A stretch of DNA of 64,000 nt from the NCBI GenBank assembly GCA_963803185.1, contig CAWDMF010000007.1:2718-66717 (forward strand). Direction: 5' to 3'. The DNA comes from an uncultured Gammaproteobacteria bacterium. Lineage in GTDB: Bacteria > Pseudomonadota > Gammaproteobacteria > SZUA-229. Shown here piece by piece: positions 8,240 through 57,199 of the stretch. The stretch's first letter is position 1; each line of letters opens with the position of its first letter. A program made the translations under genes and the position numbers. The notes under the pieces were generated by a model. It ran no database searches. It worked only from the letters and a program-made list of their open reading frames with translations, and was not told the origin of the DNA.

Positions 8240-8295
8240 TTGTTTGCTCTAAATGAGTATGGCGGGAGGTAAGACCATGTCCTACCTCTCGTTAC

Positions 8296-8480
8296 GACGT
8301 ACATGGATGTGGCAAGTGCGGAAAATGCAGGAGCGATTTTCAGCCGACGTACATGGATGTGGCAAGTGCGGAAAATGCAGGAGCGATTTTCAGCCGACGT
8401 ACATGGATGTGGCAAGTGCGGAAAATGCAGGAGCATTTTTTCCGCCAAGTACATGGATGTGGGAAATGCAGGTATTGCAT
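8296..8480. repeat. tandem repeat, 50-bp unit x ~3.7
   Basis: ACATGGATGT starts at 8301, 8351, 8401, 8451 (exact 50-bp period); unit cgacgtacatggatgtggcaagtgcggaaaatgcaggagcgattttcagc, last copy degenerate. Confidence 0.85.
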
Positions 8481-8499
8481 AAGCAAATATCTGCCTGTT

Positions 8500-12199: not shown

Positions 12200-12240
12200 G
12201 GAAACACTGTTGAAAGACAGTGTTTTCCCGGCCTTTTCCT
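12200..12240 (+). terminator. rplL-rpoB intergenic attenuator hairpin
   Basis: GGAAACACTGTtgaaagACAGTGTTTTCC stem-loop followed by CGGCCTTTTCCTGTTTC. Confidence 0.5.
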
Positions 12241-12460
12241 GTTTCTATATGGGAATTCCAGGTGGAAGCAGTTGAATAGTGATTAAGTAATAAATAGTGA
12301 TTAAGTAATAACTGTTCAGATTGCTTCTAAAACTAGTTAGTTCAAGGCGAAAAATGTGAATTTATTATAAATAAATGAACATTTTTTAACGAAGAAATAA
12401 TAAGTTTTAGAGGCGAGTTGAGTAGTTATAAAATAAATTTAGATTAAACGAGGAAGACTG

Positions 12461-20962: not shown

Positions 20963-20968
20963 GAAACG

Positions 20969-21075
20969 TTTTACCGCCGAGACGCAGAGACGCAGAGTTA
21001 ATAAGTGTTTGTTGCGCCTGCGGCGCCACAAACTTATAAGAGTTTTTCTCTGCGTCTCGGCGGTAAAAAATGCTT
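20969..21075 (+). terminator. rpoBC operon terminator: long nested inverted repeat
   Basis: 21-bp perfect stem TTTTACCGCCGAGACGCAGAG / CTCTGCGTCTCGGCGGTAAAA enclosing inner hairpin, followed by A/T run. Confidence 0.6.
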
Positions 21076-24473: not shown

Positions 24474-25664
24474 GTGTCTAAGGAAAAGTTTGAAAGAACC
24501 AAGCCACACGTAAACGTAGGCACAATTGGTCACGTAGACCACGGTAAAACCACACTGACAGCAGCGATGACGAAAGTTATGGCAGAAGCGCAGGGCGGTG
24601 AAGTGAAAGCCTTTGATCAAATTGATAATGCACCGGAAGAGCGTGCACGCGGCATCACCATCGCGACCTCACACGTGGAGTATGAGAGCCCGAACCGTCA
24701 CTATGCGCACGTTGACTGTCCTGGACACGCCGACTATGTGAAGAACATGATTACCGGTGCAGCGCAGATGGACGGTGCTATCCTGGTTGTATCAGCTGCG
24801 GATGGCCCAATGCCTCAGACCCGTGAGCACATCCTGCTGTCACGCCAGGTTGGTGTGCCATACGTGCTTGTTTATATGAACAAGGCCGACATGGTTGATG
24901 ACGAAGAGCTGTTAGAGCTGGTTGAAATGGAAATCCGTGAGCTGTTAGACGCTTATGAATTCCCTGGCGATGACACCCCGATCATTATTGGCTCAGCACT
25001 GAAAGCATTAGAAGGCGACACCAGTGAAATCGGCACGCCATCAATCATCAAGCTGGTAGAGGCGATGGATAACTACATTCCGCAGCCAGAGCGCGCGGTA
25101 GACCAGCCATTTTTGATGCCTGTTGAGGACGTATTCTCAATCTCGGGTCGCGGTACGGTGGTAACCGGTCGTATCGAGCGTGGAGTGATCAACGTTGGTG
25201 AAGAGATCGAGATCGTCGGCATCCGTGACACCCAGACAACAACCTGTACCGGTGTTGAGATGTTCCGCAAATTGCTGGACACAGGTGAAGCCGGTGATAA
25301 CGTTGGCCTGTTGCTGCGTGGCCTGAAGCGTGAACAGGTTGAGCGCGGCCAGGTATGCTGTAAGCCGGGTTCTGTTAACCCGCACACCAAGTTTGAGTGT
25401 GAAGTTTACATATTAAGTAAAGATGAAGGTGGTCGTCACACGCCATTCTTCAATAACTACCGTCCACAGTTCTACTTCCGTACGACTGACGTGACAGGTG
25501 CATGTGATCTGCCGGAAGGTACCGAGATGGTAATGCCTGGCGATAACATAAAAATGATAGTGACCCTGATCAACCCGATTGCGATGGAAGAAGGTTTACG
25601 CTTTGCGATTCGTGAAGGTGGTCGTACCGTTGGTGCAGGTGTGGTTGCTAAAATTATTGAGTAA
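24474..25664 (+). CDS. tuf: elongation factor Tu (copy 2, GTG start)
   Basis: Protein identical to copy 1 except D/N at one position; nucleotide ends identical, a few synonymous changes centrally. Confidence 0.97.
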
Positions 25665-25674
25665 TAACAGCTCA

Positions 25675-25770
25675 GCTCGCCACTGAGGCGCGTCATTTCT
25701 TCGTTGGAAAATGGTCGTTTACACCTGTAAACTCACATTTTCCGCCTCGAACTGACGCGCCTCAGCAGCA
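25675..25770. repeat. structured palindromic intergenic repeat element, copy A (tuf-rpsJ spacer)
   Basis: Outer stem CACTGAGGCGCGTCA / TGACGCGCCTCAG flanking inner hairpin GAAAATGgtcGTTTACAccTGTAAACtcaCATTTTC; second copy at 34200-34292 with compensatory changes. Confidence 0.6.
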
Positions 25771-25809
25771 ATCTGAATTGTTATCGTTATTTAAAGTTAA
25801 GAGAAAATT

Positions 25810-26121
25810 ATGGCTAATCAACACATTAGAATTCGTTTAAAAGCTTTCGATCACCACCTGATTGATAAATCAGCACACGAGATCGTCGAAACAGCAAAAC
25901 GTACGGGTGCGCATGTTAAAGGTCCTATTCCGTTACCAACGAAAAAAGAACGTTTTACTATTCTGATTTCTCCGCACGTGAACAAGGATGCCCGTGATCA
26001 GTACGAAATTCGCACGCATAAGCGTATGATGGATATTATTGATCCAACAGATAAAACAGTGGATGCTTTGATGAAGCTTGACCTGTCTGCTGGTGTTGAT
26101 GTGCAAATTAAACTAAATTAA
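25810..26121 (+). CDS. rpsJ: 30S ribosomal protein S10
   Basis: Sequence. Confidence 0.97.
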
Positions 26122-26551
26122 TAGTAATTGCTCAGCTGGTCCTTGAAATCTGAGTAGCTACTCCTGATTTTGGCTGATCGCTGGTTAGTTACAAATTATT
26201 TTATAGATTTTTCGGTTTCACTCTTTAATTTAGACAAGAAACTGTTTATAATAGCTGGCTTTGCTGCCTGGCTAATAACAGAGCAACCTATGGTGGTTCT
26301 GTTATTTAAAGTTACGGCGCAAAGTACCTGATTATCGTAAGTCCTGAGTTTTTATTAAGGCAGGGATACTGCGACAACTGCAATCTGGCAAAGATTGTTT
26401 ATTGAAAGTTCGGTATAAATTTAATTCATTAATCACGACGGCTGTGAAAAGCGGTGTTCGTGATTAGATTACTGGCTCGCCTTAATATTTCTTCGGAAGT
26501 TTTATTTGCGGCTGGTTTTTTTATTAGTAGGTTTTGGTAGTAGGCACAGAT

Positions 26552-27203
26552 ATGACTATTGGTGTTATTGGTAGAAAAGCGGGTATGACGCGCGTATTCA
26601 CTGAAGAGGGCGGTTCAATTCCTGTCAGTGTTATCGAGGTTTCGTCTAACCGTATTACCCAGATTAAAACTGAAGAAACTGATGGTTATCAGGCGATTCA
26701 GATTACTACAGGTTCTAGAAAAGCATCTCGCGTCAATAAACCAATGGCTGGGCATTTTGCCAAAGCCGGTGTAGAAGCGGGTCGTGGCCTGTGGGAATTT
26801 CGCATAGAAGGTGATGAGGCTGCTGAGCTGGCTGTTGGTGGTGAAGTGTCTATCGATATATTTGAGGCGGGCCAAAAGATTGATGTTACCGGTACTACCA
26901 TAGGTAAGGGTTTTCAGGGTGGTATCAAGCGTCACAACTTTACTATGCAGGATGCTACACATGGTAACTCGATTTCGCATCGTTCAAACGGTTCCATAGG
27001 TATGTGTCAGACACCGGGTCGTGTGATCAAGGGTAAAAAAATGTCAGGTCACATGGGTAATGACGCGGCGCACGATACAGTCGCTGGAACTGGTGTCTGT
27101 AGATGCTGAGCGAGGCCTGTTATTAATCAAGGGTTCTGTGCCAGGATCAAAGGGCGGTAATGTAATTATTAAGCCGGCTGTTAAGGCTAAAAAAGCCAAA
27201 TAA
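26552..27203 (+). CDS. rplC: 50S ribosomal protein L3, with apparent +1-bp frameshift near 27065-27071 (GCGGCG)
   Basis: Frame 1 gives ..GHMGND then nonsense; frame 2 continues [36 protein letters not shown] matching L3 C-terminus. Confidence 0.85.
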
Positions 27204-27271
27204 TTTACGGATTACACTTTCCGACTAATTTTAGATAATACGTTTTTAAAGATTAAGCATAGAGATTAACC

Positions 27272-27931
27272 ATGGATCTGCAATTACATAATAGTAAAGA
27301 AACAATCGCTGTATCTGATGCAGTGTTTGGTCTTGAATACAAAGAAAGTCTGATTCATCAACTGGTGACTGCTTACATGGCTGCTGGTCGCGCAGGTACA
27401 GTTGCGCAGAAAAATCGTTCTGCAGTACGAGGCGGTGGTGCTAAGCCATGGAATCAAAAAGGTACGGGCCGTGCACGCGCGGGTACAAGTCGTAGTCCAC
27501 TGTGGCGTAGTGGTGGTACAACCTTTGCTGCTCAGCCGCGTGATTACAGGCAAAAGTTAAATAAAAAAATGTATAGAGCGGGTGTTCGTTCTATTTTGTC
27601 TGAATTGAACCGTCAGCAGCGTTTAATTGTTGTAGATGATATTACTGTTGATGCGCCTAAGACAAAACAGATGGCGGCTAAACTGGCTGAGCTGGGTGTG
27701 GCAGGTTCAGACAGAAGCGGGCCTTTAATTATTACTGAAACAGGCGATGAAAAATTATATTTATCTGCTCGCAATCTGCCACATGTAGAAGTGTGTGATG
27801 TTGCCGGTATGAATCCAGTGAATTTAGTTAGATCTGAGCATGTAGTGGTCACCGTTGGTGCAATACGTGCGATTGAAGAGCATCTTGATCAGCAGCAGTC
27901 TGGCCAGAAAAAAGATGGGGAGAGTGAATAA
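27272..27931 (+). CDS. rplD: 50S ribosomal protein L4
   Basis: Sequence. Confidence 0.95.
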
Positions 27932-28227
27932 TGAATCAGGAGCGCATGCATCAGATTATAGTGTCGCCACATGTGTCTGAAAAAGGTAGCCTGCTGGCAG
28001 ATGAACAAAATCAACATGTCTTTAAAGTGCTGTCTACAGCAACGAAGACTGAAGTAAAACAAGCTGTTGAAGGTATGTTTAAAGTTAAAGTTGAAAAAGT
28101 ACGCATTTTAAACACTAAAGGTAAAGTTAAACGTTTTAGTGGTCGCATGGGTAAGCGCTCTGACATGCGGAAAGCTTACGTTACCTTAATGGCTGATAAT
28201 GATATTGATTTCTCTGGTTCGAAATAA
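27931..28227 (+). CDS. rplW: 50S ribosomal protein L23
   Basis: Sequence. Confidence 0.95.
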   Translation: MNQERMHQIIVSPHVSEKGSLLADEQNQHVFKVLSTATKTEVKQAVEGMFKVKVEKVRILNTKGKVKRFSGRMGKRSDMRKAYVTLMADNDIDFSGSK

Positions 28228-28255
28228 GCGAGACTGAGACAGAAGCGAGTTACTG

Positions 28256-29080
28256 ATGGCAATTGTAAAAACCAAACCAACATCACCTGGACGTCGATTT
28301 GTCGTTAAGGTTGTTAATAAAGAATTACATAAAGGTGCGCCTGAGCGAGCCCTGACTGAAAGTAAGAGTAAGTCCGGAGGTCGTAATAATGCAGGGCGTA
28401 TTAGTGTTCGCCACATTGGTGGTGGTCACAAGCAGCACTATCGTATTATCGACTTCAAGCGTAATAAGGATGGTATTCCTGCACGTGTAGAGCGAATTGA
28501 GTACGATCCGAATCGTACCGCAAACATCGCTCTGCTGGTTTATAAAGACGGTGTAAAGACTTACATTATTGCACCAAAAGGTGTTAAGGCAGGTGATACG
28601 CTGCAATCGGGTGCCGATGCACCGATTCGTGCCGGTAATACATTACCTATTGCCAATATTCCAGTTGGTTCGCAGATTCATTGCATTGAAATGAAGCCGG
28701 GTAAAGGTGCGCAGATTGCGCGTAGCGCCGGTACCACAGCGCAGTTGCTGGCACGTGAGGGCATGTATGCTACCTTGCGTTTACGTTCAGGTGAAATGCG
28801 CAAGATTCATACTGATTGTCGTGCAACGATTGGTGAAGTAGGTAATTCAGAGCATTCGTTGCGGTCATTAGGTAAAGCAGGTGCTACTCGCTGGCGCGGA
28901 GTGCGACCAACTGTTCGTGGTGTAGTTATGAATCCAGTTGATCATCCGCATGGTGGTGGTGAAGGTCGTACCTCCGGTGGTCGTCACCCTGTGTCACCAT
29001 GGGGTATGCCTACTAAAGGTTACCGAACACGCAGTAATAAGCGTACAGATAATATGATTTTGCGTCGCCGAAATAAATAA
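28256..29080 (+). CDS. rplB: 50S ribosomal protein L2
   Basis: Sequence. Confidence 0.97.
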
Positions 29081-29121
29081 TTACGCATAAATAGTAACAG
29101 CGAATAATTGAGGAAAGTTAA

Positions 29122-29394
29122 GTGCCACGTTCATTAAAAAAAGGTCCCTTTATTGATCATCATTTGATCACTAAAGTGAACAAAGCGGTAGAGACTAAAG
29201 ATCGCAAACCAATTAAAACCTGGTCACGTCGTTCAACAGTTTTCCCTGAAATGGTCGGTTTGACCATAGCGGTGCATAATGGTAGACAGCATGTACCGGT
29301 TCTGGTTAACGAAAACATGGTAGGTCATAAGTTGGGTGAGTTTGCTTTAACCCGTACTTATAGAGGCCATACTGCAAACAAGAAAGTAAAGTAA
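29122..29394 (+). CDS. rpsS: 30S ribosomal protein S19
   Basis: Sequence. Confidence 0.97.
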
Positions 29395-29405
29395 AAGGTG
29401 TCATT

Positions 29406-29738
29406 GTGGAAGTTATTGCAAAACATAGATACGCGCGTATTTCTCCTCAGAAATGTCGTTTGATTGCGGATCAAATACGTGGCTTACCTGTTGATAAAGC
29501 ATTAGATGCGTTAAATTTTGGCGTAACTAAATCATCAGACTTGATGAAAAAAGTACTGGAGTCTGCAATTGCTAATGCAGAACACAACGAAGGTGCTGAT
29601 ATTGATGAGCTTCATATTGCAAAAGTATTTGTAGATGAAGGGCCAACAATGAAGCGAATTCAGCCACGTGCGAAAGGCCGTGCTAACAGAATTTTAAAAC
29701 GTACAAGCCATATAACGGTTTGTGTGTCTGATCGTTAA
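29406..29738 (+). CDS. rplV: 50S ribosomal protein L22
   Basis: Sequence. Confidence 0.95.
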
Positions 29739-29787
29739 CCGCAACGATTCATAATGATAAAGATCGGCCAATAAAGAGAACTGAATA

Positions 29788-30489
29788 ATGGGTCAAAAAG
29801 TACATCCAGTAGGTATGCGTTTAGGTATTTCAGCAGATTGGAATGCGAAGTGGTATGCATCAACAAAAGATTTTCCGAATCTTCTGAATGCAGACATACA
29901 GGTACGCGAGTTTTTGCATAAAAAACTGGCTAATGCCAATGTAAGCCGCATTCAAATTGAGCGCCCTACCGGCTCAGCAAATATCACTATACACACCGCT
30001 CGTCCTGGTGTGGTTATTGGTAAGAAAGGCGCAGACATAGAAGTACTGCGTAAAGAAATTGCAAAAATTATAGGTTTGCATGTCAACAGTGTCAAAGTAA
30101 ACATTGAAGAAATTCGTAAACCTGAACTTGATGCAAAATTAGTTGCTGAGAGTATTGCGCAGCAGCTTGAACGTCGTGTGATGTTCAGGCGTGCAATGAA
30201 ACGTGCTATTCAAAATACTATGCGCATGGGTGCGCAAGGCATAAAAATAAAAATTGGCGGCCGTTTGAATGGTGCTGAAATTGCACGTAGTGAGATGTAT
30301 CACGAAGGTCGCGTACCTTTGCATACCTTACGTGCAGATATTGATTACGGCACTTTCGAGGCGTTAACCACCTACGGAATTTTAGGTATTAAGGTCTGGA
30401 TTTATAAAGGTGAAGTTTTTGATCTTTATAAAGAAAAAGAGACAAAAGACGCTGCTAAAACAGGTGCTGGCGTGGCTGTTGGTAAGTAA
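29788..30489 (+). CDS. rpsC: 30S ribosomal protein S3
   Basis: Sequence. Confidence 0.97.
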
Positions 30490-30530
30490 ATACCAGGTAT
30501 CAGCCGAAGTCATAATTAGAGGATTATAAA

Positions 30531-30944
30531 GTGTTACAACCTAAGCGTACAAAATTTCGCAAAATGTTCAAAGGCAAGAACCGTGGTTTTGCTCAGAATG
30601 GCAATAAAGTCAGTTTTGGTGAATACGGTTTGAAAGCTACTGAACGTGGCCGTGTCTCAGCTCGCCAAATTGAAGCAGCTCGTCGTGCGATGACACGTAA
30701 AGTAAAACGTAGCGGTAAAATCTGGATTCGTATATTTCCTGATGTGCCTATTTCAAGCAAGCCGCTTGAAGTTCGTATGGGTAAAGGTAAGGGTAATGTT
30801 GATTACTGGTGTTCTAAAGTACAGCCAGGTACCGTTTTATATGAAATGGAAGGTGTGTCTGAAGAACTGGCACGTGAAGCTTTCCGGCTAGCGGCAACCA
30901 AGCTGTCAATTAAAACAACTTTTGTAATTCGTGCGGTGATGTAA
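30531..30944 (+). CDS. rplP: 50S ribosomal protein L16
   Basis: Sequence. Confidence 0.97.
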
Positions 30945-31186
30945 TGGCTTCTGCTCAAGAATATAGAAATATGTCTGAAAAAGATTTAAATGCTGAATTG
31001 TTAAACTTACGTCGTGAACAATTTAACCTGCGTATGCAACTGGGTTCGGGTAATACACCAAAAATTCATCGCTTTAGCATGGTTCGTCATGACATTGCGC
31101 GTATAAAAACAGTATTAACTGAAAAAACTCAACCAGGTAAAGCGGCAACTAAGCCATCGAAAATTAAACAAGCGGGTGATGCATAA
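30944..31186 (+). CDS. rpmC: 50S ribosomal protein L29
   Basis: Sequence (C-terminal extension relative to E. coli). Confidence 0.9.
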
Positions 31187-31479
31187 TGACCAGTGTTGAT
31201 ACAACAGCCGTTGCAGGAAATGAAGCAGCAAGCAAGCGAACTCTGCAGGGTGTGGTAACAAGTAGTGCTGGTGATAAATCAGCAACAATTATGATTGAGC
31301 GTCGCATTAAACATCCTATTTATGGAAAGTTTATTAAACGCTCAACCAAGATTCGACTTCACGATGAAGCAAACGAGTGTAATAAAGGTGACACAATCTT
31401 AATAGAAGAGTGTCGTCCTATGTCCAAGACCAAGTCCTGGAAGCTTGTAAAAGTTGTTGAAAAAGCTGCTGAGCTTTAA
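31186..31479 (+). CDS. rpsQ: 30S ribosomal protein S17
   Basis: Sequence. Confidence 0.93.
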
Positions 31480-31534
31480 CGGCTAGACTGTAACGCTTAG
31501 GCTTTGATAATTAAAAGCAGGTAGAAATACAACC

Positions 31535-31903
31535 ATGATTCAAATGCAAACAATTTTAAATTCTGCTGATAACAGTGGCGCACGCAGCATGATGTGCATC
31601 AAAGTATTGGGTGGATCACATCGTCGTTATGCTCGTGTTGGTGATGTCATTAAAGTAAGTATTAAAGATGCGATACCTCGCGGTAAAGTAAAAAAAGGTG
31701 AAGTTTATAACGCAGTTGTAGTACGTACCAAAAAAGGTGTGCGTCGTTCTGATGGTTCAACAATTCGCTTTGATAGCAATGCTGCTGTTATTTTAAATGC
31801 TAATTTACAGCCAGTAGGTACACGTATTTTTGGCCCGGTAACACGTGAATTGCGCAATGAAAAATTTATGAAAATTGTTTCACTTGCACCGGAAGTACTG
31901 TAA
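31535..31903 (+). CDS. rplN: 50S ribosomal protein L14
   Basis: Sequence. Confidence 0.97.
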
Positions 31904-31955
31904 TTAAATTATCGCAAACGAGCGCAAATTCCAGATATTAGTTGGATAGAAGAGT

Positions 31956-32270
31956 ATGAAACGTATTAAAAAAGGTGATCAGGTCATCGTTATTACTGGC
32001 AAGGATAAAGGTCGTCAAGGTACAGTATTAAATGTAGCTGATGATAGTGTTCTTGTTGAGGCTATAAATATGGCTAAGAAGCACACCAAAGCAAATCCTA
32101 TGGCAGGCATTGAAGGTGGTATTGTGGATATGGCAATGCCATTGAACATATCAAATGTGATGCTGTTTAATCCAATGACCAATAAAGGCGATCGTATTGG
32201 TTTTAAAACGCTGGAAGACGGTCGTAAAGTGCGTTACTTCAAGTCTAACGGCGAAGTCGTAGACGTATAA
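31956..32270 (+). CDS. rplX: 50S ribosomal protein L24
   Basis: Sequence. Confidence 0.95.
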
Positions 32271-32281
32271 GGTAAAGAATA

Positions 32282-32842
32282 ATGTCAAGATTACAAGAAT
32301 TTTATCGTGATACAGTCGTTAAGAATCTAATGGCTACAGGCGCTTACAAAAATGTAATGGACGTGCCTCGTATTACTAAAATCACTATAAACATGGGTTT
32401 GGGTGAGGCGATTGGTGATAAAAAAGTATTAGAAAATGCTTTGTCAGACATGGAAAAAATTGCTGGTCAAAAACCGGTAACAACATTGGCGCGTAAATCT
32501 GTCGCTTCGTTTAAAGTACGTGATGGTTACCCAATCGGCTGTAAAGTAACGCTACGCAGTGAAAGAATGTACGAGTTTCTGGACCGTTTAATCAGTATCT
32601 CTGTGCCACGTATTCGAGATTTTCGCGGTTTAAATCCAAAATCATTTGATGGTCGTGGTAACTACAACATGGGCGTTAAAGAGCAGATTATTTTTCCTGA
32701 AATCGAATATGAAAAAATCGACAAAATCCGCGGAATGGATATTTGTATAACAACAACTGCAGCGGATAACGAAAGTGGTCTTGCATTGTTAAAAGAGTTT
32801 AATTTCCCCTTCAAAGGCGAAAACAAGCAGGGTAATAAATAA
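32282..32842 (+). CDS. rplE: 50S ribosomal protein L5
   Basis: Sequence. Confidence 0.95.
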
Positions 32843-32843
32843 C

Positions 32844-33149
32844 ATGGCAAAGAAATCTATGGTTGCTCGCGAGCACAAACGTACTCGCCTGGTAGAACAA
32901 TACGCTGACAAGCGTGCAAAGTTTAAAGCAGTACTGATTGATCAAAATGCAAGTTTTGATGAAAAAATGGAAGCACAACGTCAGTTGCAAACATTGCCTA
33001 GAGATTCCAGCCGTTCACGTGGTCGTAATAGATGCCGCATAACCGGACGTCCACACGGTGTATTTCGTAAGTTTGGTTTATGCAGAAATAAATTACGTGA
33101 AGCTGCAATGCGTGGCGATATTCCTGGCCTTGTTAAGGCCAGTTGGTAG
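32844..33149 (+). CDS. rpsN: 30S ribosomal protein S14
   Basis: Sequence. Confidence 0.95.
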
Positions 33150-33161
33150 AGGTATTTCATT

Positions 33162-33552
33162 ATGATGACAGATCCTATAGCAGATATGCTAACACGCGTT
33201 CGAAATGCGCAAGCAGCATCAAAAGTTGATGTTACGATGCCATCGTCCAAGTTAAAGCTTTCTATTGCAAAAGTATTGCAGGATGAAGGTTATATTGCGG
33301 GTTATTCAAGTGACAACGCAGTTAAGCCAACTTTAACGGTCACTTTGAAATATTATGAAGGACGCCCGGTTATTGACGAGTTAAAACGTATAAGTCGTCC
33401 TGGTTTGCGTATTTATAAAAATAAAAACGAATTGCCAAAAATCCTTAAATGGTTTAGGTATTGCCATTGTGTCAACATCTGCGGGTGTAATGACAGATCG
33501 AGAAGCGCGCGACTCTGGTCGCGGTGGTGAAATCATTTGCACCGTTTCGTAA
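33162..33552 (+). CDS. rpsH: 30S ribosomal protein S8, with apparent 1-bp insertion in AAA run near 33447
   Basis: Annotated frame ends in ..[30 protein letters not shown]; alternate frame gives canonical [34 protein letters not shown] ending at 33552. Confidence 0.85.
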
Positions 33553-33651
33553 AAGTCGAATTTTTGATAACGGGCTTTTGATAAAGCATAAACTGATTGA
33601 ATTATAGAAATATACTGAGCTGTAACAAGCTTATAAACATAGAGAAAAACA

Positions 33652-34185
33652 ATGTCTCGTATTGCTAAACAACCTGTGGAACTGGTACCTGGTGTGGAAG
33701 TTAACATCAGCGGTCAGTCTATTACTGCAAAAGGTAAAAAAGAATCCTTATCACTGAAATTGCATGAAACAGTGAGTGTGAAACAGGAAGACGGTGCGCT
33801 TACTTTTTCACCAAATGATGATTCAAAAGGCAGTATGGCAATGGCTGGAACAATGCGTTCTCTGTTCAATAACATGGTGATTGGTGTTAGTGAAGGTTAT
33901 AGCAGGCAGTTGCAGTTAGTCGGCGTGGGTTACAGAGCACAAATGCAGGGCAACGTTCTTGATTTGTCTTTAGGCTTTTCACACCCGGTTAAGTATGCGA
34001 TACCAGAAGGCATCACTATTGAAACGCCCAGCCAGACAGAAATTAACGTAAAAGGCGCTGACAAACAAAAAGTTGGTCAGGTCTGTGCAGAGATTAGAGC
34101 TTATCGTCCACCAGAGCCATATAAAGGTAAAGGTGTCAGATATTCAGATGAGCGTGTAATACGCAAAGAAGCGAAGAAAAAATAA
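33652..34185 (+). CDS. rplF: 50S ribosomal protein L6
   Basis: Sequence. Confidence 0.95.
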
Positions 34186-34199
34186 TGTAATAGCTCATA

Positions 34200-34292
34200 T
34201 CACCACTGAAATACGCCGGCACTGCGTTAAAAAATGTTTATTTACACTTGTAAATGCACATTTTTCGCCTTGATCTGACAAATTTCAGCGGT
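34200..34292. repeat. structured palindromic intergenic repeat element, copy B (rplF-rplR spacer)
   Basis: CCACTGAAAT...AAAAATGtttATTTACActTGTAAATgcaCATTTTT...ATTTCAGCGG; same architecture as 25675-25770 with base-pair covariation. Confidence 0.6.
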
Positions 34293-34337
34293 AATCTGAA
34301 CCATTACAAAGATGCAAAGTAAATATAGAGCAAGATT

Positions 34338-42649: not shown

Positions 42650-43126
42650 ATGAATGGCTTATTGAAAAAACGATTTATTTTGCCGTGTTGCGTAGTGTGT
42701 ATGTGTGCGCCATCGGTTTTGTTGGCCTCACCAGATGATTTAGATGAAATAACCATCCGTATAATCGAGGACGATGCCTATATCCCCGGTGTTCATAGCC
42801 TGGAACTGCCTGTTTTTGGCAATGATGATGACCGTGATAAGGATACTAAGGACGATGCTATTGATGACAGGAATGAGGATAAGGATGATATCGAAGAACA
42901 GGAAGATACTGACGAGACCGACGAACCTGATGAAGCAGATGATGATCGGGATGAGCTAGAGGAACCTGATGATCTGGATGAGCCAGATGAGCCAGATGAG
43001 CCAGATGAGCCAGATGAGCCAGATGAGCCAGATGAGCCAGATGAGCCAGATGAGCCAGATGAGCCAGATGAGCCAGATGAGCCAGATGAGCCAGATGACT
43101 ATGATGATCATGACGATCATGATTAG
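42650..43126 (+). CDS. secreted hyper-acidic repeat protein, (EPD)13 tract and DDHDDHD tail
   Basis: Sec signal peptide (..APSVLLASPDD), then >50% D/E; 13 tandem GATGAGCCA units encode EPDEPDEPD... Confidence 0.6.
   Translation: MNGLLKKRFILPCCVVCMCAPSVLLASPDDLDEITIRIIEDDAYIPGVHSLELPVFGNDDDRDKDTKDDAIDDRNEDKDDIEEQEDTDETDEPDEADDDRDELEEPDDLDEPDEPDEPDEPDEPDEPDEPDEPDEPDEPDEPDEPDEPDDYDDHDDHD
42977..43093 (+). repeat. 9-bp in-frame microsatellite (GATGAGCCA)x13
   Basis: Perfect 13-unit array inside CDS 42650..43126. Confidence 0.95.
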
Positions 43127-43321
43127 CCAGATGAGTCTGAGGAATCAGAAAAGTCAGAATCACCAGGAATAGCATTAGCAGCAAACATGTCATATCCGTT
43201 GCCCGGGTTTTTAATGTATTAGCACTGGATTTCCTTTAGCCTGCTGCCGGGTAATTTATGGCAGCATAAAAGATTGCGGGGATATAGTTCAGAGGCAGCA
43301 TGTGCAATATAATGAGCACTT

Positions 43322-50812: not shown

Positions 50813-52228
50813 TATTCACTAAAATCATCCAGCGGGCTTTTTATATTGTCATGGTTCTTTTGCATCACGTGTGTGTAGATTTCTGTGGTTTTAACATCGT
50901 TATGCCCTAACAATACCTGTAACACCCGAATATTTTCACCATTTTCTAATAAGTGTGTGGCAAAGCTATGTCTATTATTCCGAGCTCGGAATAATAGACA
51001 TAATGCCGAGTTCCGGATTATTCCGAGTAGCAAACCGAAACACGGTGAATCACGGGATCTTGAGTACATCGAACTCGGCATAATCAGAGGCTATTCAGAA
51101 AAGCCAGTAGCTGATCATCGGGCCGATAACGTGCCATGGGTATATTTGAAGGAGTTGTCGTCGCCAAGGCTTTTTCTTTAAGTTTTAGATCTGCGTGGAG
51201 ATAGATATAGGTTGTTTCTACAGACTCATGACCAAGCCAGAGCGCAATAACAGTGTGATCAAAGCCAATAAAAGAAGACAGCCTGATTATTCCGAGTAAT
51301 CAAGCAGTGGATACCCTCATAAACCATTGAATGTAGGTATATGTCAGACGCATGTCAACATGCTACTCGGAATAATCCGGAACTCGGCATTATGTCTAAG
51401 CGTATGTGGCGAAGTGCGTTTAATGATCCCGGCCTTAATTCTTGCACTTGATACCGCTTTTTGTAGTGCGCTTTTATTAAGATGATGTCGCATAACTTTC
51501 CCGGAGCGCGGATCAGTCGAGCGTACTTTAGAAGGAAACAAATATTGCCAGCCCAATGAAATGTTTGCTTTGCTGTATTTACGACTTAATGCTGTCGGCA
51601 AATAAACTTCACCATAACCATCGGCTAAATCTTTATTGTGCAGTTGCTTTACCACTTCAATTTGGTCACGAATGGGTTGATGCAAAGCATCAGGGAAAAT
51701 TGTAGTGCGATCTTTGTCGCCTTTGGCATTTCTGACATAAATTTGATTATTTTCAAAATCAATGTCATGAATGCGTAAACGAATAACTTCCAACGAGCGT
51801 AAACCAGAGCCATACATCAAGTAGGCTAATGTTTTTGCCGTGCCCGACATGCAGGTCAACAAGGACTTTACTTCATCTTTACTTAATACGGTAGGCAGTC
51901 TTTTCCCTTTAGTTGTACGCCTGGCGCGGATATCAAGATCCATTGGCATATCAAGTACTTTTTTATAAAGGAACATAATGGCATTAAATGCCTGGTTCTG
52001 AGTTGAAGCTGCGACGTTGCGATTAACCGCAAGATGGCTTAAGAACCGTTCAATTTCAAACTTACCCATCTCCCTGGGGTGTTTCTTTCCATTGAAACGA
52101 ATAAATTTTAAGATCCATTCAACATACGATTTTTCAGTATTGTATGCGTAATGATAAAACCGAAGTGTTTCGCGTACCTGATCCATTAATCTGGTCGCAG
52201 TGGGTCGAAACGTAACTGACTCATCCAT
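50812..52228 (-). pseudogene. intI: integron integrase gene interrupted by a ~425-bp MITE insertion
   Basis: N-terminal part 51393-52228 has IntI signature (LPTALSRKYSKANISLGWQYLFPS, additional domain) and ends ..SPHTLRH then runs into element; C-terminal part ([36 protein letters not shown]) resumes at 50970 in continuity. Confidence 0.85.
50971..51398. mobile_element. non-autonomous MITE-like element with 36-bp perfect terminal inverted repeats and subterminal ATTATTCCGAG repeats
   Basis: TIR AGACATAATGCCGAGTTCCGGATTATTCCGAGTAGC at 50996-51031 and reverse-complemented at 51363-51398; ATGTCT present at both junctions; no coding capacity. Confidence 0.75.
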
Positions 52229-52547
52229 GATAAAAATCCTTTTAATTGGTGTATTAGCAATAGCTTAACTTATGGCTACTTTTGCCCTTAAATATCGTAA
52301 TAGGGCGCCTTGGTTAAAAATTCTTACATTACAAGGCTACTTTACCCCTTAAATATCGCAATAGGTAGCCATAGTCATGTAATATGATAAATATTCTAAA
52401 TTTAAGCACTGTCTGAGGCGTCTTTTACCCCTTAAATATCGTAATAGGGCGCCTTATAGGGTGTATATTATAAAAAATAGGACGCCTTAGAAGGCGTCAT
52501 ATCGACAAGTTAGCTTCATAAAAAAATACATCTTAGGGAATTTTATA
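52229..52547. promoter_or_regulatory. attI-like region with three ~40-bp direct repeats and a GTTAGCT core next to first cassette
   Basis: GGCTACTTT(g/a)CCCTTAAATATCG(t/c)AATAGG repeated at 52272, 52333, 52412; palindrome GACGCCTTAGAAGGCGTC; lies between intI start and first cassette. Confidence 0.5.
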
Positions 52548-53222
52548 ATGGGAAAGTACTCTCTTAAAAAAGAATTAGATACAACAGAGTTAATTAAATG
52601 GGGTAGCGCTGTTATAGGTGGTCTAGCCATATTTTTAGTGATAACTCTAAAAGATTATGAATTAAAAAAATACGAAATTCTTGAAAAAGAGGCCGTATTA
52701 ATAGAGAAGGCTGGTAACCAATTATTAAAAGGGTTTGAGTTAATGAAAAATTACAAGCCCAGTATAGATGTCCACTACACCAATATGCTATCCGAAAAAG
52801 CTGATGAACTTCACATTAGAGTTTATATCAAATCTACATCAAAAAACGATATATATATTTTTCCTCCAAAGTTGACTTTAATTGATGTAGAGGGAAATGA
52901 GATTGATACCAATCTGTATAAAGCTGGTGATATAAAATCATTTAAAGGAAGTATTAGTCCAGAGTCATCGTTTCAAATAAATTATAAAATATTCTTGCTA
53001 AATATAGACACTGATAAAATTGGCAATGTACAGCTTGACTATGAGGTTCAAATAGATCAACTGGCTTCAGCACCTATAAAGATGTACTTTGAAGAATATG
53101 GATCGGAGAAGGAGAAAGAGCTCTTTAATGTGCTTAACTCTAAAAAGTATATTTATCGAGAAAGGGTATATGCTTATGCGGGTAATCCCATTTGGAATGA
53201 TTTTTGGGAAAATCCGAGATAA
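52548..53222 (+). CDS. integron cassette ORF 1, membrane-anchored hypothetical protein
   Basis: N-terminal TM helix, followed by attC. Confidence 0.6.
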   Translation: MGKYSLKKELDTTELIKWGSAVIGGLAIFLVITLKDYELKKYEILEKEAVLIEKAGNQLLKGFELMKNYKPSIDVHYTNMLSEKADELHIRVYIKSTSKNDIYIFPPKLTLIDVEGNEIDTNLYKAGDIKSFKGSISPESSFQINYKIFLLNIDTDKIGNVQLDYEVQIDQLASAPIKMYFEEYGSEKEKELFNVLNSKKYIYRERVYAYAGNPIWNDFWENPR

Positions 53223-53225
53223 CTA

Positions 53226-53286
53226 AGCTAACAAGTTAATTAACGGCGACCGCAAAAAACGCGTCGCGTTATTTTTAACGTTATGT
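53226..53286 (+). other. attC site 1
   Basis: Imperfect palindrome TAACAAG...GCGACCGC..GCGTCGCG...AACGTTATGT. Confidence 0.55.
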
Positions 53287-53293
53287 TTAAAAA

Positions 53294-53671
53294 ATGAATT
53301 GGAAAATAATGGAAATATTCAAAGGCATTGATCTTAATGATTCATTTGTTCTTTCATGGCATCAAGGAACAAACGAACTTACTTTCGAGCTCGAAACAAG
53401 CATTTGGCCAGAATCTACATACTATGAGAAACCTAAACCAAATGAACATACTTGTTATAAACGAGCTATTCTTTCATTTAAAAACATTAAAGAGCTAAAT
53501 GGTCTACTAGAACTAAATCAAGTAAAAGCCACAACTGATGCTTCTGGTGAAAAAGACTATGGAAACATAGATAACTTAGAACAAAATGATAAGGGTTTTC
53601 TAGTTGAAGGTGAATTTGGTTCAGTCTCAATTGCAGGCGGAGAAATAAGCTTTGAAATCAAAAAAACATAA
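53294..53671 (+). CDS. integron cassette ORF 2, hypothetical
   Basis: ORF bounded by attC sites. Confidence 0.55.
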   Translation: MNWKIMEIFKGIDLNDSFVLSWHQGTNELTFELETSIWPESTYYEKPKPNEHTCYKRAILSFKNIKELNGLLELNQVKATTDASGEKDYGNIDNLEQNDKGFLVEGEFGSVSIAGGEISFEIKKT

Positions 53672-53752
53672 CAAGGCAATCAAGTTCGCCCGTAAAAATC
53701 ACGGGCTTGGACGCGGCAAAAGACGCCGCGCCACTTATTTATAACGTTATGT
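53666..53752 (+). other. attC site 2 (family B)
   Basis: ACATAAC inverse core ... GTTATGT core, internal imperfect palindrome. Confidence 0.6.
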
Positions 53753-53779
53753 GTGAAAAAATAAAAATGAGAAAAATAA

Positions 53780-54040
53780 ATGAGTGATGAATTTGAAGTA
53801 AATATGTCACCACTATGCCAAACCATATCAAGTGGTGGCAAGACATTGCAGGTCGATATTTATGAAGATGGTAATGGCAAGTGGATTTTAGAGGTAGTGG
53901 ATGAATTTAATAACTCTACTGTATGGGACGATTCATTTGAAACAGATAAAGCTGCCTTAACAGAAGCTAAAAAAACAATATTATCTGAGGGTGCAAGTAT
54001 ATTAGTTGGGCCTGAGTCAGGTAAAGGCGAATGGAGTTAA
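53780..54040 (+). CDS. integron cassette ORF 3, hypothetical
   Basis: ORF bounded by attC sites. Confidence 0.55.
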   Translation: MSDEFEVNMSPLCQTISSGGKTLQVDIYEDGNGKWILEVVDEFNNSTVWDDSFETDKAALTEAKKTILSEGASILVGPESGKGEWS

Positions 54041-54050
54041 AAAATAAAAC

Positions 54051-54137
54051 ACATAACAAATCAATCAAGTTCGCCAGCAAAAGGCGCTGGCTTGGACTCC
54101 GCAAAAAACGCTCCGCCACTTATTTCGGACGTTATAT
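54051..54137 (+). other. attC site 3 (family B, similar to site 2)
   Basis: ACATAACAAATCAATCAAGTTCGCC...CCACTTATTTCGGACGTTATAT. Confidence 0.6.
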
Positions 54138-54154
54138 TTAAAAGATAAAAAAGC

Positions 54155-54412
54155 ATGAATGAAGAACAAATTCTAAATGTAGCAAAGGTACTCGAAGAGT
54201 GGAACCCACTTGGCGAGGCAGCTAATACTGTAGAGCAATTAGATGGTTACCGTTATGAGGCAATTGATATTATTTCAACAATCCAAATAGTTAATGGCCC
54301 AGGTAAAATAAAAGAATCAATAGAGCAGGTATTAACACAAGCATTCAATATTGAGCTTAATGAAGTTAAGCTTACTGAGGCAGAAAACAAAATAAAGAGC
54401 CTAATCAGTTAA
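54155..54412 (+). CDS. integron cassette ORF 4, hypothetical
   Basis: ORF bounded by attC sites. Confidence 0.55.
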   Translation: MNEEQILNVAKVLEEWNPLGEAANTVEQLDGYRYEAIDIISTIQIVNGPGKIKESIEQVLTQAFNIELNEVKLTEAENKIKSLIS

Positions 54413-54438
54413 TCATCATGCTCTTATTAAATAAAAAA

Positions 54439-54530
54439 TATAACAAGCCGCTCAACATTGACCGTTTTTACACGCCGCGCCGTTTCACTTTGCTCTGTGT
54501 AAAACCGTCAGGTTATGCTGAGCGTTATGC
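54439..54530 (+). other. attC site 4 (family A: CTCAACATTGACC..TTTACACGCCGC..)
   Basis: TAACAAG...GTTATGC; related to attC 7, 9, 12. Confidence 0.6.
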
Positions 54531-54574
54531 ACATAAAAAAACCCAGGTGTTAACAAAAATAAATTGGAGGCGTA

Positions 54575-54778
54575 ATGGATCCTGATAAAATGATGAGTGA
54601 CATTTCAAAAGAAATACTTACGGCATTAAAAGCAATGGCAAAAGCAAAAAACCCTGAAGAAAAACTGATACACAGTGAAATAGTAAAGAATCTATGTGAT
54701 TCACTTGGAGTTTTTCTTAGTTTAATAAGTGATATGGCTCTATATGATGATGACGATGATGAACCAATCCCATTTTAA
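54575..54778 (+). CDS. integron cassette ORF 5, small protein with acidic tail (DDDDDEPIPF)
   Basis: 67-aa ORF; near-identical second copy at 57200. Confidence 0.55.
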   Translation: MDPDKMMSDISKEILTALKAMAKAKNPEEKLIHSEIVKNLCDSLGVFLSLISDMALYDDDDDEPIPF

Positions 54779-54789
54779 AATCACGTTTG

Positions 54790-54875
54790 CATAACAAATA
54801 AATTAACGCAGATCGCCATAGACGCCGTTTGTTTTCAAATAGGCCGTGCAGCGGCTGGTTATTAAAACGTTATGT
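54790..54875 (+). other. attC site 5 (family C)
   Basis: CATAACAAATAAATTAACGCAGATCGCC...GGCTGGTTATTAAAACGTTATGT. Confidence 0.6.
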
Positions 54876-54896
54876 GTAAAAACCGAATCAAAAGAA

Positions 54897-55316
54897 ATGG
54901 ATATATTTAATAGTTTGGAGGTTGAAAAAGTATTTAATTCTTATCCGGATAATATCCGCATAAAAATGCTACTCCTTCGCCAGCTAGTTCTGGAAACAGC
55001 AGCGGAAATTGATAACGTTCAAAGCATTGAAGAAACTTTAAAATGGGGCGAGCCAAGCTATATAACAAAGCACGGGAGTACATTACGGATGGACTGGAAA
55101 AAATCAAATCCAGATCAATATGCAATGTACTTCCATTGTAAGACAAAACTTGTTGATACATTCAAAGAGCTTTATAAAGGCAAGTTCAAGTTTGAAGGCA
55201 ACAGAGCCATTGTATTTAATATAAAAGACAAAATACCAATTAATGAGCTAAAGCATTGTATTTCTTTATCTCTCACTTATCACAACATTAAACATCTACC
55301 AATGTTGGGTGTATGA
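54897..55316 (+). CDS. integron cassette ORF 6, possible DUF1801/YdhG-like protein
   Basis: Start moved to Met after attC; weak resemblance to DUF1801. Confidence 0.4.
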   Translation: MDIFNSLEVEKVFNSYPDNIRIKMLLLRQLVLETAAEIDNVQSIEETLKWGEPSYITKHGSTLRMDWKKSNPDQYAMYFHCKTKLVDTFKELYKGKFKFEGNRAIVFNIKDKIPINELKHCISLSLTYHNIKHLPMLGV

Positions 55317-55320
55317 TAAA

Positions 55321-55420
55321 AACACATAACAAGGCGCTGCACCGGAATTTTGCTTCGCTACGCTTCGCAAAATCCCGTGAGCTGGGTCGCTAGGGCCGTA
55401 AAAACAAGCAACTTGACATT
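55321..55420 (+). other. attC-like site 6 (lacks clear 3' GTTATG core)
   Basis: ACACATAACAAGG inverse core with internal palindrome but atypical 3' end. Confidence 0.35.
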
Positions 55421-55446
55421 CATCTAAATGTAAATACAATGTATTT

Positions 55447-55710
55447 ATGATTAAATTCGAATGGGATGCATCCAAAGCCACATCAAACAAAAGAAAACAT
55501 GGCGTTACTTTTGAAGAAGCACAGTCTGTGTTCTACGATGACTTTGCCATCCAGTTCTTTGATGATGAAAATTCAGAGCTAGAAGATAGGTTTCTTTTAC
55601 TAGGTCACAGTAACCAATCAAGGATATTACTTATCTGCCACTGTGAAAAAGAATCAGGCAATCTCATTCGAATCATATCAGCACGTAAAGCAACAGATAA
55701 AAGAGCGTAA
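55447..55710 (+). CDS. brnT: BrnT-family (DUF497) ribonuclease toxin
   Basis: FEWDxxKAxxNxxKHGVTFEEA motif. Confidence 0.8.
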   Translation: MIKFEWDASKATSNKRKHGVTFEEAQSVFYDDFAIQFFDDENSELEDRFLLLGHSNQSRILLICHCEKESGNLIRIISARKATDKRA

Positions 55711-55731
55711 GCTCTATAAAGGTGAAGCATA

Positions 55732-55957
55732 ATGAAAAAAGAATATGATTTATCTAAAATGAAATCACGTAAAAATCCATATGCATCAAAGCTCAAAAAG
55801 CCCGTAACAATGCGTCTTGGTGAGGATGTAATCAATTATTTTAAAGAGTATGGCTGAGGATTCAGGTGTACCTTATCAAAGCTTAATTAATTTATATCTT
55901 CGTGACTGTATTTCACAGCATCGTAAAGTAGATATATCTTGGAATCAAAAGCCCTAA
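55732..55957 (+). pseudogene. brnA: BrnA-family antitoxin with 1-bp frameshift in TTTTAAAG run (~55840)
   Basis: MKKEYDLSKMKSRKNPYASKLKKPVTMRLGEDVINYFK then frame switches to SMAEDSGVPYQSLINLYLRDC.. Confidence 0.7.
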
Positions 55958-56044
55958 CAATACGCTCAACATTGACCATTTTTACACGCCGCGCCACTTC
56001 GTTTTGCTCTGTGTAAAAACGTCAAGTTAGCTCCAACGTTTGGT
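55953..56044 (+). other. attC site 7 (family A)
   Basis: CTAACAATACGCTCAACATTGACCATTTTTACACGCCGCGCC...GTTTGGT. Confidence 0.5.
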
Positions 56045-56055
56045 GGAGGAAGACG

Positions 56056-56454
56056 ATGAAAACTCAAGTAACATTTCGATCAATGAATTTCCCTCCGTAC
56101 GATGGCGAAGAAGAGCAGATCAACCCAGGTCTCTGGGGCAAGAGGTTAGCTGAGTATTTTGTCGATAAACTGAAGCCACATGGCATCGAGACGGAAGAGA
56201 TCATTGCGGAAGATTGGGGATGGTACATTCCGATAAAGAACGAAGGATTCCGACTCGCTATTTGTTGTGGGCACCAAAATGGCGATGACGACGAGTTCTT
56301 GTGCTTCACCGACCCAGCAACACCAATAATCCGGAAATTCTTCAAGAAGATAAACGCGACACATGAGATCACGCGCGTCGTGGTCGCCATGGGTAATATA
56401 CTTTCGTCGGATCCAAGGATAACTGATATTGAGTGGACAGAAGTTGAGAAATGA
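56056..56454 (+). CDS. integron cassette ORF 8, hypothetical
   Basis: 132-aa ORF between attC sites. Confidence 0.55.
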   Translation: MKTQVTFRSMNFPPYDGEEEQINPGLWGKRLAEYFVDKLKPHGIETEEIIAEDWGWYIPIKNEGFRLAICCGHQNGDDDEFLCFTDPATPIIRKFFKKINATHEITRVVVAMGNILSSDPRITDIEWTEVEK

Positions 56455-56456
56455 CA

Positions 56457-56515
56457 CCGAACAAGGCTAATGCAGCCGACGCAAAAAGCCGCGCGGCTGA
56501 TTAGCAACGTTAGCA
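56457..56515 (+). other. attC site 8 (short)
   Basis: AACAAGG..GCCGCGCGGC..CAACGTTAGCA. Confidence 0.45.
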
Positions 56516-56568
56516 CCCATCAATACAAAAGTATGGCTATTTAGCCATATCAATGCTATATTTACCCT

Positions 56569-57156: not shown

Positions 57157-57199
57157 ACATAAAAACACCAGGTGTTAACAAAAATAAATTGGAGGAATA

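Follow-up and report, generated by a model that had tools for sequence, protein, structure and literature searches.

Why should two spacers in the ribosomal operons of an uncultured gammaproteobacterium, the one between tuf and rpsJ and the one between rplF and rplR, hold long palindromes whose stems differ in sequence and remain paired? The question was raised by a 64,000-nt stretch of contig CAWDMF010000007.1 (assembly GCA_963803185.1), which was analysed as a whole and is referred to here as the window. An initial annotation, made from the letters alone, had noted the two palindromes and read them as possible repetitive extragenic palindromic (REP) sequences, MITEs (miniature inverted-repeat transposable elements), cis-regulatory RNAs or terminators. 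Both palindromes were present and homologous, their flanking genes were as claimed, and every quoted stem and hairpin string was found in the sequence. The sites, given as 25675-25770 and 34200-34292, were right while the true boundaries proved wider, at 121 nt each. The hairpins very probably represent a non-autonomous DNA transposon, a MITE of the foldback type, whose copies here have become fixed and are decaying.

The copies of this putative element in the window are given below, where S denotes the better-folding strand of the element, defined as the complement of the strand reading GTAACTATTCAGCTCACCCC.

25664-25784, plus strand: copy A, a palindromic MITE of 121 nt in the tuf-rpsJ spacer, with S on the minus strand.
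34187-34307, plus strand: copy B, a palindromic MITE of 121 nt in the rplF-rplR spacer, with S on the minus strand.
12308-12429, minus strand: copy C, 122 nt in the rplL-rpoB spacer, inverted in orientation relative to copies A and B, with S on the plus strand, which is the mRNA sense.
26124-26192, plus strand: a collapsed remnant directly 3' of the rpsJ stop codon (26119-26121).

The flanking genes (EF-Tu and S10, L6 and L18, L7/L12 and RpoB) were named from Pfam labels on the near-identical contig (L001/L132/L137); the ENA contig near-identical to the window is ERZ25039514:contig_54754. Copies A and B were homologous imperfect palindromes whose alignment had a mean column identity of 81% over the common stretch. 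The left end of copy A abutted the tuf stop codon TAA (25662-25664) and copy B began 1 nt past the rplF stop codon (34183-34185). Copy A was matched by nhmmer with an E-value of 1.6e-27 and by the covariance model with 129.1 bits on the minus strand versus 69.9 on the plus strand, and the corresponding values for copy B were 5.4e-28, 113.7 and 57.5. Copy C was found by a repeat search, scored 107.6 bits on the plus strand versus 43.5 on the minus strand, and folded at -44.6 versus -27.3 kcal/mol on the same strands. The rpsJ remnant consisted of a left arm, GTAATTGCTCAGCTGGTCCTTGAAAT, fused to CTGAGTAGCTAC, followed by a spacer and an outer terminal repeat, CTGGTTAGTTAC (26181-26192). Its flanks, AAATTAAT and AAATTATT, matched at 7/8 positions only after a 1-nt shift and at 5/8 in register.

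Exactly three full copies in the window (A, B and C) were returned by the family hidden Markov model (HMM) and covariance model, plus a weak covariance-model match at the rpsJ remnant (26122-26163, 12.8 bits, E 0.7). A degenerate pattern for the inner hairpin matched only the sites of copies A and B in the 64 kb, where 0.00 matches were expected from 100 shuffles. Folding and a search for further copies had been proposed at the outset as checks, and each gave a positive answer. Copies A and B folded far better than shuffled sequence, with copy A at -52.2 kcal/mol (z -8.1) on the plus strand and -62.3 (z -9.4) on the minus strand and copy B at -28.2 (z -3.5) and -47.2 (z -7.7), respectively. 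Further copies comprised the third copy, the rpsJ remnant and matches in at least 120 genome stretches elsewhere.

These stretches were obtained with a single degenerate core-hairpin pattern searched against the contigs of one genome per bacterial species. Among the matches listed, hosts of the main type included several gammaproteobacterial groups and orders (Sedimenticola, Piscirickettsiaceae, Thiomicrorhabdus, Methylococcales, Chromatiaceae, Cellvibrionaceae, Granulosicoccus and Ca. Endobugula), Nitrosomonas and one metagenome-assembled genome (MAG) of the Aquificaceae. A variant with other outer arms occurred in Bacteroidota, in a Geofilum isolate and in MAGs of Marinilabiliaceae, Saprospiraceae and Bacteroidales. 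Many of the hosts were marine and sediment bacteria. At least ten matches were found in the Geofilum isolate, at least eight in Nitrosomonas OFTM23, at least seven in Sedimenticola TCF1 and five in a Methylococcales MAG with contigs of 1-2 Mb. Because the carriers are mostly MAGs, single odd host assignments, such as a 1.7-kb contig labelled Desulfobacterales, need caution. A scan of viral contigs yielded one genuine copy and two chance A+T-rich matches.

The anatomy of the family was that of a transposable element. The palindrome spanned GTAAC to GTTAC and was 121 nt long in most of the 48 cleanly anchored copies, with terminal inverted repeats of GTAACTATTCAG, a 12-nt repeat, and CTGAAYAGTTAC, and the entire element formed one inverted repeat. 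Alignment of same-genome copies with long flanks placed an 8-20-nt spacer past the right end, followed by a second terminal 12-mer, (G)CTGAATAGTTAC, and perfect 8-bp direct repeats immediately outside the element. Among 76 bounded copies, 41 were of a long form (140-153 nt) with the extra terminal repeat and 35 of a short form (121 nt). Eight-bp flanks with at least 7 of 8 bases matching were found for 36 of the 76 (for example CTCGGGAG, CGCGGGTA and GCCAATAA), of which 24 were perfect, and short forms with perfect repeats were found in the Aquificaceae MAG and in one gammaproteobacterial MAG. The duplicated targets were 68% A+T and had no consensus. Some copies were nested in other copies, some derivatives were without the hairpin middle, and some copies had foreign insertions in the apical loop.

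Short length (about 100-300 bp), lack of coding capacity, terminal inverted repeats, a fixed-length duplication and dispersed copies with filled and empty sites are among the features that define a MITE, and these were found. The only reading frame noticed by eye on the model strand was one in the core (ATG plus about 14 codons), and a coding role for it was rejected as the loop length varies by single nucleotides, which breaks the frame. A MITE is a familiar kind of element; a description of this family itself was not found in the searchable literature by sequence strings or host genera. A paper on MITEs of Thiomargarita was considered as a possible description and set aside as its elements differ, and no Beggiatoaceae-type TAACTGA repeats were present in the window. 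In two unrelated genomes, a second small hairpin (GGCAATTGCTCCTGCATTGCC-like) was located in the apical loop of the MITE (L007 2378-2427 and L089 2949-3062), which suggests another tiny mobile element that targets this loop.

The same spacers were compared in related contigs, defined as metagenome contigs that encode an identical S10 protein. The tuf-rpsJ spacer was filled in the window, L001, L002, L003 and L009, empty (17 nt) in L004 to L006, L008 and L010, and collapsed to 52 nt in L007. The rpsJ-rplC spacer, which holds the remnant in the window, had a full copy in L002, L004 to L006, L008 and L010, a copy with an apical insertion in L007 and none in L003, where it was empty. The apical 42 nt of copy C were missing in the very close relatives L138 and L139, where the flanks were otherwise identical. 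These empty, filled and collapsed sites, together with the terminal repeats, the 8-bp duplications and the copies in many genomes, bear out the MITE-like reading first proposed for the palindromes. The rplF-rplR spacer was filled in 9/9 related contigs that cover it, and because none of these is empty, we infer the insertion of copy B from its homology. The earlier proposal that copy B had inserted into the spc operon is therefore likely from homology, with no empty site and with flanks that match at only 3/8 positions on the other side of the balance. Past the remnant, the rpsJ-rplC spacer (26200-26533) contained about 330 nt conserved in all related contigs, an insert unusually long for the first two genes of the S10 operon, with a promoter-like TTTAAT-17-TATAAT near 26224-26253 and no Rfam match.

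Placement relative to genes was assessed for the 76 bounded copies by counting open reading frames (ORFs) of at least 70 codons that terminate inside the 8-bp duplication or on the TAA of the element itself. Such ORFs ended at 29 left ends and 10 right ends, so that about half of the copies abutted a stop codon, and in 15 copies the stop codon was supplied by the element's own G-TAA-C, including for ORFs of 365-498 codons. In the window, copies A and B and the rpsJ remnant started 0-2 nt from the stop codons of tuf, rplF and rpsJ. The imbalance between left and right ends was weak in copies with intact duplications (11 versus 6) and strong in older copies (18 versus 4), and on this evidence differential retention looks a better account of it than a choice of target. 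Placement at a stop codon, with the stop codon at times donated by the element, is a tidy route to a harmless insertion.

Long stable hairpins directly past stop codons are also what look-alike intrinsic terminators or attenuators at operon boundaries would present, and in Escherichia coli an attenuator is known from the rplL-rpoB spacer. Copies A and B were, however, homologous over 121 nt and belong to an element flanked by duplications elsewhere, and neither hairpin was followed on its 3' side by a T-run on the sense strand. A scan for terminator-like sites gave one site in the region of copy A versus 0.6 expected, on the minus strand and comprising only the outer 17 nt of the element, and none near copies B or C. 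A separate terminator-like hairpin with a T-run was already present upstream of copy C. The intrinsic-terminator explanation offered initially was not upheld, given the lack of a T-run and terminator-like sites no commoner than in shuffles, and we regard independent terminators at A and B as scarcely credible. The hairpin upstream of copy C (GGAAACACTGT...ACAGTGTTTTCC, with its T-run, at about 12200-12240) looks like an rplL-rpoB attenuator. An 18-nt tandem duplication (AATAGTGATTAAGTAATA, two copies, 12276-12311) abutted copy C and was absent in L138 and L139.

A cis-regulatory RNA dedicated to the ribosomal operons, a reading likewise proposed at first, found no support, since elsewhere the element adjoins unrelated genes and in relatives the corresponding spacers lack it or hold it in collapsed form. 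A search of the whole window with Rfam at gathering thresholds returned tRNAs only, and permissive searches (E up to 10), run on the copy A region and on the rpsJ-rplC spacer, yielded no meaningful match. A ribosomal-protein leader or other known structured RNA was ruled out by the lack of an Rfam match, the absence or collapse in relatives and the unrelated neighbours elsewhere. Promoter-like sites around the three copies were at the level of shuffled sequence.

The pairing of the stems was examined in an alignment of 86 distinct copies. Standard pairs made up 95.4% of pair cells and 29 of 46 pairs had changed on both sides. Cells with two-sided changes numbered 348 versus 76.8 +/- 7.1 in shuffles, a value reached in 0/500 shuffles, and pairing fell to 35-47% when the 3' partner was slid by 1-3 columns. 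The compensatory changes first noticed between copies A and B thus hold for the whole family. The pairing was maintained on S alone, as S folded better in 89/89 copies (-57.0 versus -39.8 kcal/mol with RNA parameters, and DNA parameters agreed) and had 521 G·U cells versus 33 A·C cells. The S orientation was favoured by 44-64 bits in the covariance model at all three window copies, and the bias toward S extended to the Bacteroidota variant (24/25 copies).

Relative to the surrounding genes, S was found in either orientation: it was the antisense strand of the ribosomal genes at copies A and B and the sense strand at copy C, and over all co-directional contexts it was sense in 17 and antisense in 27. 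Three tuf-rpsJ orthologues with a common odd left junction, which lacks the terminal G, were 24-27% apart and had 10 compensated pairs, with 3 broken cells on S versus about 10 on the mRNA strand. Selection would therefore not have acted on the operon transcript, and host mRNA folding does not explain the pairing constraint. The initial claim of selection on structure was supported by the strong covariation, with the qualification that in copies A and B the favoured strand is the one antisense to ribosomal mRNA. One of the element's strands would seem to exist single-stranded part of the time, as a transcript or as DNA. It is quite possible, if short of probable, that the strand constraint acts on this single-stranded form of the element and not on ribosomal-operon mRNA.

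Several results weigh against the transposon reading or limit it. Copy B diverged by 7.5-8.3% from its orthologues in L002 and L003, versus 14.6-27.4% at four-fold degenerate sites of neighbouring ribosomal genes, and copy A kept its pairing through 24-27% divergence. A slow copy B and a paired copy A hint at constraint after insertion, which is unpredicted by a pure relic model, and gene conversion between copies is an alternative to such constraint for A and B. No copy in the window had an intact duplication (3/8 for copies B and C, 5-7/8 for the rpsJ remnant and unclear for copy A), and because the duplications have decayed here, these copies are taken as insertions from their homology to bounded copies and from the empty sites in orthologous spacers. 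About 0.9 Mb of flanking loci, plasmids and one metagenome scan yielded no autonomous partner whose ends match. Among the single changes private to one lineage that were counted at ancestral Watson-Crick pairs, 36 gave G·U, 7 gave A·C and 26 were transversion mismatches; because A·C is depleted and transversions are not, there is room for strand-specific mutation bias beside selection, and the strand bias could be partly mutational instead of selective.

The slow divergence of copy B also bears on the idea that the MITE has been domesticated, the host using the operon copies, in the way of enterobacterial repetitive intergenic consensus (ERIC) or REP sequences, as RNA hairpins that set the relative stability or processing of mRNA between cistrons and thereby preserving their pairing. 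The rplF-rplR spacer filled in every related contig covering it, the 10 compensated pairs among copy A orthologues and the rate of copy B would all fit such a role, and the last keeps a modest possibility alive; in addition, ERIC elements influence how stable the adjoining mRNA is, and this influence depends on their orientation (PMC2229807). The preserved strand is, however, antisense in copies A and B, where the sense strand carries A·C mismatches (-28.2 versus -47.2 kcal/mol for copy B) and, among the copy A orthologues, the excess of broken cells. The tuf-rpsJ copy was absent in five relatives with identical S10 and collapsed in one, the rpsJ copy was only a remnant in the window, and the conserved apex of copy C was gone from L138 and L139. 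The rate comparison is weak evidence, since highly expressed ribosomal genes are under constraint at four-fold sites as well. Domestication is on these grounds improbable. The unusually long spacers in the str, S10, spc and rpoBC operons are very probably explained by transposon relics.

Strand-specific folding is shared with the substrates of enzymes that act on single-stranded DNA, which raises the prospect of REP or REPIN sequences moved by a RAYT (HUH) protein, or of attC-like sites used by an integron-type integrase of the window. Large attC sites resemble the element in its length of about 120 nt and in its TAAC...GTTA ends, and the window encodes a tyrosine recombinase beside a cassette-like array. 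The element nevertheless has 8-bp duplications and true terminal inverted repeats, and its copies are single and dispersed with no same-orientation arrays, while attC sites have no target duplications and are arranged in arrays. Beyond GTAAC and GTTAC lie direct repeats in place of the inverted RYYYAAC/GTTRRRY boxes, only TAAC and GTTA being common, and the cassette repeats of the window differ in sequence. Target duplications ruled out an attC identity, and the REP label suggested initially did not fit an element that is too long, has target duplications and lacks a GTAG or CGTC head; nor did any gene recur beside the copies, as a linked RAYT gene would. Either system is very improbable as the source of the copies.

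The region referred to above (51344-58900) looks like a chromosomal integron with attC sites. It begins with the tyrosine recombinase (294 aa, Phage_int_SAM_4 and Phage_integrase, 51344-52228, minus strand), which is followed by small ORFs including a DUF1801 protein (54846-55316), a RelE-like protein (57998-58474) and several with no Pfam match. Imperfect palindromes of 75-85 nt, TAAC...GTTA, lie between these ORFs (for example 54441-54515, 55955-56029, 57064-57145 and 58757-58838). Directly past the last attC-like repeat is an IS6-family insertion sequence (58839-59637) with a transposase of 225 aa (DDE_Tnp_IS240, 58893-59570, minus strand) and ends, GGTTCCGTCGCAAAT and GGTTTTGTCGCATTC, unrelated to the MITE. 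A perfect 38-nt inverted repeat (50995-51032 and 51361-51398) around 328 nt is located upstream of the start of this region and overlaps it.

The Bacteroidota variant had ends of AGTGYCTGTCTATAAAGTCC (AGTGYCTGTC termini) and a 4-bp AWWT duplication. Its layout was that of the main type: it too had a palindrome, a spacer and an extra outer terminal repeat, placed to the same side of the core, and the core and the adjoining TTCTGCGTTA...CCTTGAA stretches were shared between the two. Common descent with diverging transposases, or one module captured by two chassis, are possible origins of the shared core. On S the core reads AAAAUG-UGA-GUUUAC-loop-GUAAAU-GAY-CAUUUU. One could regard this conserved hairpin of about 34 nt as selected cargo, a small RNA or a protein-binding hairpin that is spread by the chassis, since two chassis with unlike termini and duplication lengths, one having GTAAC and 8 bp and the other AGTGYCTGTC and 4 bp (AWWT), both carry the core and some of the adjoining arms and are alike in layout and favoured strand. 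Positions outside the requirement of the search pattern (RTCA, CT) are near-invariant while the stems covary, and the 3x3 internal loop UGA/GAY on S could form tandem G·A pairs.

Set against this, the core was the search pattern, and its conservation comes in part from how the copies were found. The core was locally dispensable: L138 and L139 lacked it, several copies had it in collapsed form, and insertions interrupted it in L007, L089 and L093. No Rfam family matched it. No enrichment of promoters was found, and S had no preference for the sense orientation. It is rather unlikely that the element is more than a selfish relic, in the sense that a module of about 34 nt, with an invariant 3x3 internal loop and always foldable on S, reached Proteobacteria, Bacteroidota and possibly Aquificota by way of two or more transposon chassis differing in ends and target duplications and has a functional single-stranded form; a hairpin selected as cargo is slightly less likely still. 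If the module were functional, the S form might act as a small structured RNA, or as folded DNA that a protein recognises, with possible roles in transposase control, in a hairpin-dependent step of mobilisation or for the host at gene 3' ends. The family would then be a vehicle for a structured nucleic-acid module; otherwise it is one more bacterial MITE family.

For the transposon reading, the termini and the length of the duplication suggest a transposase of the IS66 family as a candidate, GTAA termini with 8-bp direct repeats being the classic signature of that family. IS66 terminal repeats begin GTAAGCG or GTAACCG and are accompanied by 8-bp direct repeats (PMC11946415, PMC12888890). The 8-bp repeats agree, and of the terminal motif (20-30-bp repeats, GTAAGCG) only GTAA(C), the first 4-5 bases, is common. 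As no partner with matching ends was found, we infer both mobilisation in trans and the IS66 assignment. A blastn search of the consensus against 72,556 plasmids gave no match. Solo terminal repeats in all loci proved to belong to collapsed or nested copies, or else to other short elements having these ends, and solo ends of the Bacteroidota type were uninformative for an autonomous partner. The ORFs that adjoin one truncated copy were ordinary genes, and an all-against-all comparison of 983 ORFs yielded no recurrent neighbour protein. No IS66-type transposase was present in the loci analysed, and the sole transposase of the window is that of the IS6 family, with its unrelated ends.

Other short non-coding elements with GTAACTATTCAG termini and unrelated interiors were located at L065 3675-3846 (also L144 2325-2496) and L121 1810-2190. 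One such GTAACTATTCAG-ended element hosts a nested MITE copy with the duplication CTCACATT. Since the GTAACTATTCAG termini are common to these short elements, several non-autonomous families appear to be served by one transposase. Only the element itself was returned when metagenome sequence was scanned with the end of a second short element that shares the termini.

The history of the window copies may be reconstructed as follows. A transposase encoded elsewhere would make 8-bp staggered cuts and mobilise the MITE in trans. Insertions survive mainly at gene 3' ends, where the duplicated target often holds a stop codon or the element's G-TAA-C serves as one. In the lineage of the window, four insertions probably became established, three of them after tuf, rpsJ and rplF and the fourth before rpoB, and these were then inherited, mutated and partly deleted through hairpin collapse. 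The strand constraint would act on the element in single-stranded form, whether as the element's own transcript or as single-stranded DNA in the course of mobilisation, and effects on operon expression, if there are any, would be a by-product.

These results have consequences for annotation. The HMM and covariance model can be used to mask the family in MAGs, where such repeats break assemblies, and long spacers in highly conserved operons need not be read as regulatory RNAs. Pairing that is kept on one strand, whatever the transcription of the host, points to a single-stranded stage in an otherwise cut-and-paste-like transposon.

Other repeats in the window lay apart from the family. A 105-nt near-perfect palindrome (20967-21072) immediately past the rpoC stop codon had 22-nt perfect outer arms (TTTTACCGCCGAGACGCAGAGA), folded at -62 kcal/mol on either strand and was followed by A and T runs. 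It was unrelated to the MITE in sequence, with a weak covariance-model score of 23.8 bits, and may be a bidirectional terminator or another palindromic element. The interval from the first tuf copy to tRNA-Trp/secE contained about five tandem 50-nt units (CGACGTACATGGATGTGGCAAGTGCGGAAAATGCAGGAGCGATTTTCAGC, 8245-8494). A tandem array with a 9-nt unit repeated about 30 times (42896-43192) lay mostly within an ORF (42650-43126) with no Pfam match.

Among known systems, REP and REPIN sequences with their RAYT proteins resemble the family as abundant intergenic palindromes with a strand-specific folded form. REP sequences are 20-40 bp long with a GTAG or CGTC head (PMC3733652) and have no target duplication, whereas the family is 121 nt long, starts with GTAAC and has inverted repeats and 8-bp duplications. 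IS66 elements share GTAA-starting terminal repeats (GTAAGCG, some GTAACCG) and 8-bp direct repeats with the family, but only the first 4-5 bases match, and the Bacteroidota variant has other ends and a 4-bp duplication. The nearest known systems are the palindromic bacterial MITEs ERIC and Correia/NEMIS, which measure 100-200 bp, carry terminal repeats, yield long stem-loop transcripts and are often transcribed together with adjacent genes, on which their effects vary with orientation (PMC2229807). ERIC or IRU elements (127 bp) are closer in form, since they too are non-coding imperfect palindromes of about 120-130 bp that fold into one long stem-loop, have filled and empty sites, and are dispersed in transcribed intergenic regions, often near ORF ends; their effect on mRNA depends on orientation (PMC2229807). 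There is no sequence similarity, and bacterial MITEs of the ERIC type duplicate TA while the family duplicates 8 bp next to GTAAC termini, often has an extra outer terminal repeat and has a far wider host range. The Correia or NEMIS elements of Neisseria, about 100-155 bp long, are likewise MITEs that have terminal inverted repeats, exist in long and short forms and are co-transcribed with their neighbours into hairpin RNA (PMC2229807). They differ in a TA duplication, an IHF site, promoter-like ends and confinement to one genus, none of which was found in the family. From both ERIC and Correia/NEMIS, the family is set apart by an 8-bp duplication in place of TA, an extra terminal repeat and a very wide host range.

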